A DNA stretch of 64,000 nucleotides, taken from positions 22,113 to 86,112 of IMG/VR virus record IMGVR_UViG_3300013137_002967; one strand, 5' to 3'. The stretch is from a virus. Below the pieces are notes generated by a model. It was not told where the DNA came from. It was given only the letters and a program-made list of their open reading frames with translations, and searched no databases. This document shows, piece by piece, positions 4,859 to 7,134 of this stretch (position 1 is its first letter; each line of letters starts with the position of its first letter). Both the position numbers and the translations under genes were made by a program.

Positions 4859-5746
4859 TTATAAAATAATATTATTGGTGAATCCTGTTGTTAAATTTTC
4901 ACCATCAAATACTAAGTTAATATTTATATCATACGGATTATAAGTATATTTATAATACACTCTGATAACATTATTTAAACTTTCAGGTATATAGACATAG
5001 TTATTACAACGGCAATAATTTTCGTAGGTCCATACTTTTGTTAAATTGAATCTATCGCTAACCAAATCTAAAGAATTGAAATCTATTAAATTTTCTTTAC
5101 AATAATCATTCACTGGCATTAAAGAAACTAAGCCAACATTTTGTATATTGATTGAATCAGCAAATTCTAAATATTTATATACTTCTTCTTTAGAATCTAT
5201 ATAACATTTGGTTAGATTACAAGTTAAATTTATAAGATTTTTATCTTGGCTACTAGATTGAATTTCTTTTATTTCTTCACTTGAAATAGAATTAAAGCCT
5301 AAAATTTGATTGTTAATTTCATCTATATAATGATGTCTGCTTAATGAAATACTATCAATTTCGTTAAAAACTTCTTCATCAGCTTTAAGTTTATTTAAAT
5401 TTAATCCATTAGAGTTTAAAACAAAAGCTGTGTCTGGATAATATTCTCTAGTTAAAAGAATATTTTTTCTAAATTGTTCATAATTTAGTGTTGGTTCACC
5501 ACCTGTAAAAGCAAATTTTTTAACTCTTACTTTATCTTTGACTTCATTTAGAATTGATAGATATTTATCATAATTAAAAGGAGATGCATCATTATAAAAT
5601 TCACAAAATTTACATTTTGCATTACAACCTTTAGAACGAACATAAATGTTTACATAGGGATCAATTGGTTCTGGCTCATAATTGTAAAATTTGCAATAAT
5701 GAGATCTTACTGGAATTTGTTTTCCAAATAATTCAATATAATTCAT
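4859..5746 (-). CDS. radical SAM enzyme
   Basis: CNAKCKFC (CxxxCxxC), FTGGEPTL, NSNG, ISLS motifs; extra YCRC near the C-terminus. Confidence 0.9.
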   Translation of the reverse strand: MNYIELFGKQIPVRSHYCKFYNYEPEPIDPYVNIYVRSKGCNAKCKFCEFYNDASPFNYDKYLSILNEVKDKVRVKKFAFTGGEPTLNYEQFRKNILLTREYYPDTAFVLNSNGLNLNKLKADEEVFNEIDSISLSRHHYIDEINNQILGFNSISSEEIKEIQSSSQDKNLINLTCNLTKCYIDSKEEVYKYLEFADSINIQNVGLVSLMPVNDYCKENLIDFNSLDLVSDRFNLTKVWTYENYCRCNNYVYIPESLNNVIRVYYKYTYNPYDININLVFDGENLTTGFTNNIIL

Positions 5747-5757
5747 ATATTAAAAGA

Positions 5758-6141
5758 TTAACAACCTGTATTAGAACTACTACCGCAACCTGAATAACTA
5801 GATGATCTTTTGACTGGTTTGCTAGGTGTACTTCCACATCCAACATTCCTACTTACACTACCACAACCAAAATCTATATTATCTTTACTTGAAAGAAAAG
5901 ATGGAAGTTTCGGTTTACTAGTTTTTTCAACAGCTATATCATTCTCCTTAAAGAATTTATTAACAACCTTAGTTGAAACTTCACCTTGCTCTTTAAGGAA
6001 TTCAACTTGTTCTTTGAATTTAACTTTAGCTATTTTTTTAGATGTATATTTTTTTAAATAGAAAGAATAGAGATTAGTTAAAAGTGCTATCTCATTACTA
6101 CTACTTTCATTTATTTTCATAAATTCTCCAAAATTTTCCAT
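5758..6141 (-). CDS. protein with Cys/Gly/Ser-rich C-terminal tail (GCGS x3, terminal GC); candidate radical SAM substrate
   Basis: Ends DFGCGSVSRNVGCGSTPSKPVKRSSSYSGCGSSSNTGC; 11 nt upstream of the radical SAM start. Confidence 0.7.
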   Translation of the reverse strand: MENFGEFMKINESSSNEIALLTNLYSFYLKKYTSKKIAKVKFKEQVEFLKEQGEVSTKVVNKFFKENDIAVEKTSKPKLPSFLSSKDNIDFGCGSVSRNVGCGSTPSKPVKRSSSYSGCGSSSNTGC

Positions 6142-6162
6142 ATGAGTTTTTTCTTTTATATA

Positions 6163-7134
6163 TTAAATATTAAAAGTAGTTTTTACAATATTAATTGCTT
6201 TATTCGTTCTTTCATTCCAATCTGAACCTGAAACTCTATGACAGATTATATTATTTTTCTTAAAGAAATCTAAATAATAATTTTGTAATCTATCACGTTC
6301 TTCTTTTGGTAATCTTGTACCATCTTGAATATAAGGTGCATCATTATCCAAGAATAAATACAAATCAAATTTATTTGTATCTTCAATCCATTTATCAAAA
6401 GTTATATCCCTATTAAATAGAAATTTCGCATAAATTTTTGTAGTAATTGCATCTGTATCACTAAACAGAATTTGATTTGAAGTTTGTCTTTTTTCACTTA
6501 TATCTTTTGCGTGTAAATAAGCAATATCAAATAAATTTTGAAACTTACAATCCATTGTTTTATTTACAACAACTCTACCCCATTCTTGTACATAATTAGT
6601 TATAAAATATTTTGCTAATCTTTTTGTTAGAGTTGATTTTCCTGTTGATTCAGTACCAATTATGGCGACTTTCTTAACAAAATAAGGTTTTACATAATCC
6701 GGTAGATAAATCCAATATTTGAACGGATTTTCACGAATTAAAGTACCAGAAACTGGCATTATATCTCTATCAATATTATATGGAATATGTTCAATACCAA
6801 GGATTTCAGCGACATAATCACCATATTTTTCTGATGAAAATATAATATCAAAATCTAATATAGATTTCAGATATTCAGCCCAAACTTTTGATACTTCCCA
6901 ATCAGATTCGGAAGAAGATGGTAAATCAACATCTGTAAATTTCAATTCAACATTTTCATATTTTTCTACAAGTTTAGATAACCACCACAACCTTGTTACA
7001 CCTGGAATATCTTCATCTTTATTTACACAAAGTAAAACATATAATTTATCACATCTTTTAGATGCGAAATCTATTAATGCGTTGTGACCCAGATGTAAAG
7101 GAAAAAATTTACCTAATACTAGTCCTGTTTTCAT
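6163..7134 (-). CDS. nadR: NadR-type NMN adenylyltransferase / ribosylnicotinamide kinase (no HTH domain)
   Basis: GKFFPLHLGH (HxGH), VSGTLIRENPFKYW, P-loop GTESTGKST, DTD and QDGTR motifs. Confidence 0.9.
   Translation of the reverse strand: MKTGLVLGKFFPLHLGHNALIDFASKRCDKLYVLLCVNKDEDIPGVTRLWWLSKLVEKYENVELKFTDVDLPSSSESDWEVSKVWAEYLKSILDFDIIFSSEKYGDYVAEILGIEHIPYNIDRDIMPVSGTLIRENPFKYWIYLPDYVKPYFVKKVAIIGTESTGKSTLTKRLAKYFITNYVQEWGRVVVNKTMDCKFQNLFDIAYLHAKDISEKRQTSNQILFSDTDAITTKIYAKFLFNRDITFDKWIEDTNKFDLYLFLDNDAPYIQDGTRLPKEERDRLQNYYLDFFKKNNIICHRVSGSDWNERTNKAINIVKTTFNI

Follow-up and report, generated by a model that had tools for sequence, protein, structure and literature searches.

The locus and its two-gene unit

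The window, that is, the whole stretch of DNA analysed here, comprises 64,000 nucleotides of the IMG/VR virus record IMGVR_UViG_3300013137_002967 (positions 22,113 to 86,112) and carries on its minus strand a two-gene unit made of a 127-aa protein ending in cysteine, hereafter the partner, and a 295-aa radical S-adenosylmethionine (SAM) enzyme. The comparison of their relatives supports viewing partner and enzyme as a functional pair that has been conserved; systems in which a radical SAM enzyme has its own gene-encoded partner are known, and the one found here is of a previously undescribed form. The parent virus record measures 86 kb with a CheckV completeness of 12%, and the public sequencing runs containing the stretch are lake-water metagenomes only, all of them DNA runs and three possibly from the source sample. 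Among deposited sequences the closest are those of uncultured phages (LR745206, LR756502 and LR756501/3; 635-735 kb) with an enzyme identity of 44-52%, which we take to be huge phages of Al-Shayeb et al. 2020. The unit contains the following features:

6157-6166, minus strand: TTAATATATA motif, 15 nt 5' of the ATG of the 127-aa gene
5758-6141, minus strand: gene of the 127-aa Cys-ended partner, with its TAA stop at 5758-5760
5926-6141, minus strand: conserved N-terminal domain of the partner, about residues 1-72, free of Cys
5761-5886, minus strand: Ser/Gly-rich tail of the partner, residues 86-127, with the Cys127 codon at 5761-5763
4859-5746, minus strand: gene of the 295-aa radical SAM enzyme
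5603-5626, minus strand: CxxxCxxC radical SAM cluster motif of the enzyme (Cys41, Cys45 and Cys48), invariant in 61 of 61 sequences
5006-5014, minus strand: CxC of the enzyme (Cys245 and Cys247), invariant in 61 of 61 sequences
4847-4856, minus strand: second TTAATATATA copy, 16 nt 5' of the next gene

An earlier note on this DNA had described a partner whose four cysteines all fall in a low-complexity tail as three GCGS and a terminal GC, followed 11 nt later by a CxxxCxxC radical SAM gene and preceded by a motif of its own at 6157-6166, and these descriptions proved accurate. The only cysteines of the partner are residues 93, 102, 119 and 127, contained in GCGS at 92-95, 101-104 and 118-121 and in the terminal GC that stands right before the TAA. 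The enzyme, whose cluster motif reads CNAKCKFC (residues 41-48), starts with an ATG located 11 nt past the partner stop in a different frame, and its match to the Pfam model Radical_SAM PF04055 (42.2 bits for a cut-off of 29.5, E 1.3e-10) places it in the radical SAM superfamily. The motif is TTAATATATA, which is over-represented in the window. A stop-codon readthrough that would fuse partner and enzyme was considered and rejected, since the ATG of the enzyme lies in another frame and 23 of the 25 Cys-ended open reading frames (ORFs) stop at TAA.

A family of small proteins ending in cysteine

The last 42 residues of the partner include 11 Ser and 7 Gly, and among the 83 ORFs of at least 80 aa in the window this protein alone ends in Cys. 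No Pfam, NCBIfam or PHROG match was found for it, and nothing supports the capsid-targeting-like N-terminus suggested in the earlier note. It belongs to the family represented by an alignment of 14 partner sequences (alignment A3), in which the terminal Cys is invariant (14/14) as are L21 and F27 in the N-terminal domain. The profile of this alignment was searched against 1.84 billion cluster representatives (E<=1e-3), where the window partner (P0121) was recovered with an E of 2.9e-15 together with its relatives, 148 representatives in all at 50% clustering. A terminal Cys is present in 136 of the 148; on visual inspection, the remaining 12 seem to be truncated or spurious. Partner lengths range from 70 to 185 aa, with a conserved, folded-looking domain.

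Among the 136 Cys-ended representatives, Ser occupies position -2 in 99, and one of Ser, Gly and His occupies position -1 in 107. Exactly two Cys are found within the last 30 residues in 100 of them, the penultimate and terminal Cys being 8-11 residues apart in 107, and the terminal Cys is the sole Cys of the last 30 residues in 14. The GCG-repeat tail, singled out at first as the key feature, therefore gives way to the end of the chain, as only the terminal Cys is near-invariant across the family. Judged from these alignments, the conserved feature is this terminal Cys, often within S-x-C and preceded by a CG at a distance of 8-11 residues, and not the GCGS repeats. The four-Cys layout of the window tail is shared with its nearest relatives (P0122, P0160 and P0181) and, because most Cys-ended members have two Cys near their end, it is an expanded variant of the family tail. 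Comparable multi-Cys expansions were seen at the phage loci L002 and L025-27 and at the Bacillota locus L087. The strictly terminal position of the Cys suggests that the chain end itself is recognised.

Conservation of the pairing

A total of 508 relatives of the enzyme were recovered at E<=1e-3 in a 5.8-billion-protein collection. Among the 120 matches listed, 119 span 285-317 aa and one is a 221-aa fragment; no longer or fused form was found at E<=1e-10 among longer proteins, which is weak evidence. Around these relatives 42 viral and 74 genomic loci (L numbers) were collected. In the 36 phage loci with a near-full-length enzyme, a Cys-ended ORF lies directly upstream on the same strand in 26, directly downstream in one and within 2.5 kb in two. 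Clustering of the neighbours adds L004, L012 and L018, the latter on the opposite strand, and all 20 members of the small-protein neighbour cluster end in Cys.

It had been predicted that homologues of the enzyme would be linked to ORFs with a Cys tail, and this linkage was indeed observed. Once near-identical loci were merged, 23 of 29 phage loci had a Cys-ended ORF with a Ser/Gly-rich tail within 1.5 kb of the enzyme, versus 2 of 940 ORFs located farther away that served as a control; the neighbour at L024 is Cys-ended too but falls outside the Ser/Gly composition filter. In most loci the two genes are 0-11 nt apart on the same strand. Gene order nevertheless varies, with the partner on the opposite strand at L018, downstream at L033 and separated by one gene at L087, and partner genes occur in tandem at L023 and L028. 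The pair was also found at about 30% identity in Bacillota (L074, L080, L084, L087, L093 and L094). In the reciprocal direction, a search with a small-protein alignment (A4) led to eight IMG/VR loci, all eight on contigs already found via the enzyme, while another small-protein alignment (A5) recovered none.

The radical SAM enzyme

Besides PF04055, the enzyme matches Pfam Fer4_12 with an E of 4.3e-7. Its 21 NCBIfam matches are every one far under cut-off, the best scores being those of viperin (NF038283, 34.5 bits vs 180) and HxsC (34.1 vs 267.9), and the matches in PHROGs and PADLOC, QueE-like and pVip, are weak as well. In the ESM Atlas the nearest clusters consist of radical SAM proteins without a name, from Bacteroidota and viruses. 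When the family profile was compared with the Protein Data Bank (PDB), viperin-like enzymes and MoaA came out nearest with E about 2e-14, over enzyme residues about 26-212 only; the last 100 residues matched no solved structure (best E 0.097).

Conservation was read from an alignment of 61 phage and bacterial sequences, in which C18, C41, C45, C48, G82, G83, E84, S136, H138, C176, N213, C245, C247 and Y264 are invariant. C18, C176, C245 and C247 are thus extra cysteines conserved in 61 of 61 sequences, like those of the SAM cluster. They are probably the ligands of a second Fe-S cluster. As CxC is an uncommon ligand pair, one of the four may have another role and perhaps be free for catalysis. 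Two other functions were examined and rejected, namely an anaerobic sulfatase-type formylglycine site (20.8 bits vs 349) and a glycyl-radical spare-part role, for which the motif was not seen and the models were far under cut-off.

The enzyme is the sole radical SAM domain detected in the complete records LR756502 (642 kb) and LR745206 (635 kb), so that a further phage-encoded radical enzyme is not required by the pair. A second, unrelated radical SAM gene of the window (27963-28880, minus strand, 305 aa, CVNKCKFC) resembles a 237-aa radical SAM protein of L087 (BLASTP E 1e-12) and is present in LR756501. It was rejected as a component of the system, since neither LR756502 nor LR745206 has it and it shows no relation to the RlmN-like protein described below.

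An NAD and ADP-ribose neighbourhood

The pair was found in four distinct gene layouts connected to nicotinamide adenine dinucleotide (NAD) or ADP-ribose. In the window it sits in a tightly packed string of genes, all on the minus strand, running from a receptor gene to a 285-aa ORF. The part upstream of the pair (6163-9953) consists of overlapping genes. Besides the pair, the string contains:

7932-9953, minus strand: TonB-dependent receptor gene
7390-7935, minus strand: PnuC gene (PF04973, E 7.1e-39)
7109-7393, minus strand: 94-aa ORF
6163-7134, minus strand: gene of a NadR-type nicotinamide mononucleotide (NMN) adenylyltransferase/kinase (phrog_3462, E 1.7e-74)
3973-4830, minus strand: 285-aa ORF without family match, downstream of the pair

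This receptor, PnuC, 94-aa ORF and NadR block is a conserved context and not a component of the pair. In the phage clade, the pair follows a NadR-type gene in the window and at 11 more of the 37 loci, and the TonB receptor and PnuC accompany NadR in 11 loci. The block as a whole recurs in 11 other loci; at L003, for instance, it stands ahead of the pair. Against the window NadR-type enzyme, two NadR models score under their cut-offs (TIGR01526, 215.5 bits vs 341; NF005988, 198.5 vs 201). NARP3 is described, in the accessible text of PMC13464706, as a phage PnuC-like transporter together with a NadR-like enzyme that restores the NAD+ depleted by Sir2-HerA. The window has PnuC beside a NadR-type gene and so corresponds to the published NARP3 gene pair, with an outer-membrane receptor and the Cys-tail/radical SAM pair in addition. 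The term 'radical SAM' does not occur in the accessible text of the NARP3 paper (PMC13464706).

Other layouts were found in bacteria. The metagenome-assembled genome (MAG) of a Saccharofermentans (L094) has in order PnuC, NadR, a 91-aa protein ending in ..HSRC, a 312-aa ORF and the enzyme, and then a DUF2201 metallopeptidase/VWA protein and an AAA protein. On a 358-kb contig of a Bacillota MAG (L087), nicotinate phosphoribosyltransferase (NAPRTase), Nudix, phosphoribosyl pyrophosphate (PRPP) synthetase, the 237-aa radical SAM protein and a cytidylyltransferase-like protein of NMN adenylyltransferase (NMNAT) type are followed by a 144-aa protein, Cys-ended and with four Cys in its tail, then by a HemN-like radical SAM protein and the enzyme, and finally by a fusion of ADP-ribosylglycohydrolase and CinA and an NrtR-like regulator. 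The layout of Bacteroidales, among them the isolates Xylanibacter ruminicola KHT3, Prevotella aurantiaca and Ihuprevotella massiliensis, runs from NrtR and ADP-ribosylglycohydrolase through up to three DUF1810 copies to a large protein of A1S_2505 N-terminal type, the enzyme and a HemN-like radical SAM protein. Examples of this Bacteroidales operon, which appears undescribed, are L082 2521-9225, L054 566-6548 and L073 3627-8186. Its A1S_2505-domain protein, which matches no solved structure, has a conserved CHP...SCGEGKGP C-terminal domain; it is not claimed as an equivalent partner, as this domain looks folded and could not be aligned by eye to the phage tails. Of 51 bacterial loci, 44 have the HemN-like protein, 43 the A1S_2505-type protein and 11 the NrtR-like cluster.

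When 50 enzymes were placed in a maximum-likelihood tree, L094 and L087 fell in a Bacillota clade (SH-aLRT 89-99), although L094 forms a long branch and some MAG contigs may be phages. Because these two loci sit far from the NadR-linked phage clade, adjacency to NAD genes seems to have arisen more than once. The operon context, made of NAD-salvage and ADP-ribose genes, favours an intracellular role for the pair. As to the origin of the contigs, a 425,361-bp contig assigned to a 'Candidatus Pacearchaeota' MAG (L046) coincides in contig and range with the IMG/VR locus L022, so that a huge phage has probably been binned here with an archaeal genome.

Companion radical enzymes

The second recurring companion of the pair is a radical METHYLTRANSFERASE. 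In 12 of the 36 phage loci (L009, L010, L014, L021-23, L025-27, L030, L031 and L033) an ORF of 43-69 aa with an AACGQ-type segment was found, and that of L026 matches positions 287-343 of an RlmN model (E 1.9e-4). Just upstream, a 260-280-aa RlmN/Cfr-like core is present in L009, L010, L014, L021, L022, L026 and L031, and also in L036. This core is far under the cut-off of TIGR00048, which it matches over positions 101-253 (E 2e-20), and it aligns to RlmN residues 117-312 of 6fz6, without the N-terminal RNA-binding part. Gly replaces the Cys that in RlmN immediately precedes CxxxCxxC; in RlmN this Cys resolves the covalent intermediate and the AACGQ Cys is the methyl carrier. What lies around or beside the pair is seen as a two-piece RlmN-like enzyme, for instance at L009 4882-7038 and at L026 4808-7082.

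The bacterial relatives carry instead a HemN-like enzyme, with HemN and the methyltransferase NocN as best solved matches. No RlmN-like gene was found in the 86-kb record of the window (12% complete), in LR756502 or in LR745206, and the RlmN link is not general because of these absences. The RlmN or HemN companion is thus an optional extension of the pair. It shows that placing a separate small Cys polypeptide beside a radical enzyme is a habit of this lineage.

Comparison with known systems

Viperins and pVip provide the best NCBIfam, PADLOC and PDB matches (NF038283, E 1.2e-8; PDLC02903, E 5.2e-9; 9dfu/7n7i, E about 2e-14). Like some viperins, the enzyme adjoins a nucleotide kinase/transferase gene. 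Nevertheless, its score is far under the viperin cut-off and only the radical SAM core aligns (residues about 33-197), the NF038283 match covering residues 32-189 and the PDB matches ending near residue 197. Viperins are not known to have a second invariant set of Cys or a Cys-ended partner protein.

MoaA ranks with the best solved matches that the family profile gave (2fb2/1tv7, with E about 2e-13 over query residues 26-212) and resembles the enzyme in size and in having extra conserved Cys in its C-terminal part. The extreme C-terminal residues of MoaA's own tail reach into the active site and can also be provided in peptide form. However, the MoaA models score far under their cut-offs (TIGR02666, 25.8 bits vs 284; TIGR02668, 29.2 vs 325), MoaA carries a C-terminal three-Cys motif unlike C18, C176 and CxC of the enzyme, and in the window system the tail is a separate protein that ends in Cys, not in Gly-Gly.

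Thioether peptide systems, namely SCIFF/CteB, the PapB ranthipeptides and the sactipeptides, share with the window a radical SAM gene beside a gene with C-terminal Cys and sometimes have precursors in tandem. Their maturases differ from the enzyme in several respects. As had been anticipated, a Pfam search revealed no SPASM domain, with no such family at E<=0.01 and only the four extra invariant Cys (C18...C176...C245-x-C247) where SPASM has a seven-Cys motif and two auxiliary clusters, and the C-terminal profile of the enzyme matches no solved SPASM or twitch protein. Likewise no RiPP (a peptide made on ribosomes and modified after translation) recognition element (RRE) of PqqD-like type was detected in enzyme, partner or 285-aa neighbour, and only about 35 residues precede the cluster motif in the enzyme. 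The maturase models are far under their cut-offs (StsB, 13.8 bits vs 625; YydG, 24.6 vs 300; the AF0577 subfamily model, 24.4 vs 225; HxsC as given above). Finally, the invariant residue is here the terminal Cys, no protease or exporter accompanies the pair, and the context is that of NAD.

Mycofactocin (MftA/MftC) and PqqA/PqqE are cases of radical chemistry on the end of a small dedicated gene product, and what they make is intracellular and connected with redox-cofactor metabolism. MftC and PqqE systems have SPASM domains and an RRE partner, the residues targeted in MftA and PqqA are Tyr or Glu/Tyr and not Cys, and PqqE gives a weak PDB match only (6c8v, E 4.5e-5). In RlmN and Cfr, a Cys on a flexible C-terminal segment works inside the active site; the window enzyme itself is not RlmN-like (weak PDB match, E 1.6e-3). 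Glycyl-radical activases are not close either (PFLA, 31.2 bits vs 231.75; NrdG, 22.7 vs 126), and the partner tail lacks the glycyl-radical motif R-V-x-G-aromatic. In the literature searched, no radical SAM enzyme with a Cys-ended partner and no such pair in NAD operons was described; PMC10434189 had no bearing on the pair, and the term 'radical SAM' occurs 0 times in the accessible text of PMC9503650.

Proposed mechanism and alternative explanations

What was observed is a conserved gene pair with a near-invariant Cys at the end of the partner, extra invariant Cys in the enzyme and NAD/ADP-ribose genes as neighbours; from this we infer a way in which the partner may bind the enzyme, the site attacked, the chemistry and the role. 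It is tentatively proposed that the enzyme performs radical chemistry on the terminal Cys of the partner and so gives a protein-derived factor that acts inside the cell, and not a secreted RiPP, a reading judged to fall somewhat short of probable. The conserved N-terminal domain of the partner would probably dock on the enzyme, and the disordered Ser/Gly tail would deliver the last residue, a Cys with a free carboxylate, into the active site. This entry of the chain end is proposed because of the terminal Cys, the low-complexity tail, the docking-type domain and the coupled and tandem genes. The enzyme would use, besides the SAM cluster, a second Fe-S cluster held by the four further invariant Cys, one of which is perhaps catalytic. 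Reductive cleavage of SAM would generate a 5'-deoxyadenosyl radical that attacks the terminal Cys, and the tail end would be altered covalently, most likely by a C-S cross-link or by oxidative decarboxylation at the S-x-C end, with participation of the CG cysteine(s) 7-11 residues upstream. The modified protein, or a factor derived from it, would then be used inside the infected cell together with the upstream NAD-salvage genes. The tandem partner genes at L023 and L028, an arrangement common for precursor genes, are counted in favour of this proposal, as are the pairing with its reciprocal test, the family-wide terminal Cys, the extra invariant Cys of the enzyme, the lack of any other radical SAM domain in LR756502 and LR745206 and the close spacing of the two genes.

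Several observations weigh against chemistry on the tail. Five non-redundant phage lineages have no Cys-ended neighbour (L001/L011, L029, L030, L036 and L034): at L029 the neighbour, 353 aa long, has only a DGC inside the chain, at L030 it ends in ..SSCS, and at L034 no enzyme ORF could be called. In LR756501, searched throughout, no member of the small-protein family was found. In the same way, 30 of 52 bacterial loci lack a nearby Cys-ended ORF and have upstream the large folded A1S_2505-domain protein; a Cys-ended ORF lies directly upstream in 15 of the 52, and it is mostly this large protein. The enzyme shows no RRE or SPASM match, its nearest solved relatives, viperin-like enzymes and MoaA, act on nucleotides rather than peptides, and the recurrent NAD context suits a small-molecule substrate at least as well.

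Since these nearest solved relatives are nucleotide-acting, a small molecule has to be kept among the candidate substrates. It would be a pyridine or adenine nucleotide of the NAD family, such as nicotinamide riboside (NR), NMN, nicotinic acid adenine dinucleotide (NaAD), NAD or ADP-ribose, with the Cys-ended protein as a helper, an explanation considered possible but on the unlikely side. The helper could donate a thiol or H-atom, electrons or sacrificial sulfur, provide a ligand to the second cluster or act in trans as a gating tail. Precedents for such tails exist in the C-terminal tail of MoaA acting in trans, the C-terminal Cys pair of ribonucleotide reductase and the sacrificial Cys of LarE, which acts on a NaAD-derived cofactor. 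The viperin- and MoaA-like core of the enzyme and the presence of the pair in several distinct NAD/ADP-ribose layouts, with L094 and L087 far from the phage clade in the tree, speak for it, and the multi-Cys tails of the window, L002, L025-27 and L087 would supply more equivalents per protein. On the contrary, a helper does not by itself explain why Cys is the very last residue (136/148), all family matches of the enzyme are far under cut-offs, the NAD adjacency in phages belongs largely to one clade and L094 stands on a long branch. Direct engagement of the chain end is favoured whether the tail is substrate or helper because the Cys is terminal.

A more specific reading of this kind is regarded as rather unlikely, namely that pyridine-nucleotide metabolism includes a radical step not recognised so far and that the pair performs it, a two-cluster viperin/MoaA-like enzyme using the tethered terminal Cys as a donor of thiol, sulfur or electrons or as a covalent handle. 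If this were true, NR, NMN, NaAD, NAD or ADP-ribose would be remodelled, possibly into a sulfur-bearing or NADase-resistant NAD analogue, or else a breakdown or signal product of NAD-consuming defences would be recycled. The pair would then be an accessory arm of the NARP3-type phage reconstitution of NAD+ and of the NrtR-controlled operons of gut anaerobes, and in some lineages the RlmN-like or HemN-like radical methyltransferase would extend the NAD step.

The other explanations fare less well. The earlier note saw in the unit a candidate phage RiPP or protein-modification system, by comparison with sacti- and ranthipeptides; as a classical RiPP of this thioether type, the peptide would be released to act extracellularly or travel in the virion. 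A Cys-bearing C-terminal core adjoins a radical SAM gene, with partner genes in tandem at two loci, as would be expected of it. However, SPASM and RRE matches are lacking, neither a peptidase nor an exporter is visible in the window unit, the sactipeptide, SCIFF-type and YydG models of NCBIfam reach 14-25 bits for cut-offs of at least 300, and the partners are proteins of 70-185 aa with a folded-looking domain in an NAD-salvage context. A classical RiPP is thus very unlikely. What persists from that note is the conserved functional pair, whereas the emphasis on GCGS repeats and the sacti-/ranthipeptide class were dropped, and so was the virion-travelling product, as nothing points to export, peptidase action or packaging and an NAD/ADP-ribose operon surrounds the pair instead. 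That the tail would be a metal or Fe-S carrier, supplying or repairing the clusters of the enzyme as a chaperone or scaffold and undergoing no chemistry itself, fits its Cys-Gly motifs on a flexible segment and an enzyme that requires one or two clusters. It is nonetheless held to be highly improbable: the single tail Cys of 14 of the 136 Cys-ended members is insufficient to hold a cluster alone, the strict terminal position would not be explained, and host Fe-S machinery normally serves enzymes of this kind. As for mere co-inheritance of two unrelated genes in related phages, many loci do come from related huge phages, but the pairing is kept down to about 30% enzyme identity and across phage and Bacillota clades despite changed gene orders, which makes an absence of functional coupling extremely improbable.

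Radical SAM enzymes with gene-encoded partners have repeatedly revealed new cofactors and chemistry, for example pyrroloquinoline quinone (PQQ), mycofactocin and thioether peptides. The present family is large, as shown by its 508 enzyme relatives and 148 partner representatives, it spans giant phages and gut anaerobes, and it has neither a model above cut-off nor a close solved structure. Its placement beside NAD and NARP3 genes raises the question of whether a radical, Cys-dependent step maintains or reshapes the NAD pool in the conflict between phage and host.

Regulatory motifs and other features of the window

The TTAATATATA motif occurs 11 times in the window versus 3.9 expected, a number that none of 100 shuffles reached, and its sites include 4847, 6157, 12251, 22046, 27211 and 50030. 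Seven of the 11 copies are located 5-43 nt 5' of an ATG on the same strand (ORFs of at least 60 aa). It is probably a candidate phage promoter-type element, and the second copy likely marks the downstream border of the two-gene unit, which would then plausibly be bracketed by two copies. A generic promoter and terminator scan of 3800-10200 gave 47 promoter-like sites for 56 expected and a single terminator-like site, within nadR.

The window also encodes a NusG-like factor of 164 aa and a 399-aa protein resembling ribosomal protein S1, and it gives a weak match to a RelB/DinJ-like antitoxin (28964-30704 and 26854-27150). In addition, a 21-aa ORF ending in ..NCSSGC (12164-12229, minus strand) follows a palindromic TTAATATATATTAA and precedes a strong hairpin (12125-12175, -18.6 kcal/mol, z -3.2). 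None of the other ATG-initiated ORFs in the window, 341 in all with a minimum of 20 aa, ends in S-[SGH]-C, which is the most frequent ending among the partners, and this region could be a second mini-substrate or a small RNA.

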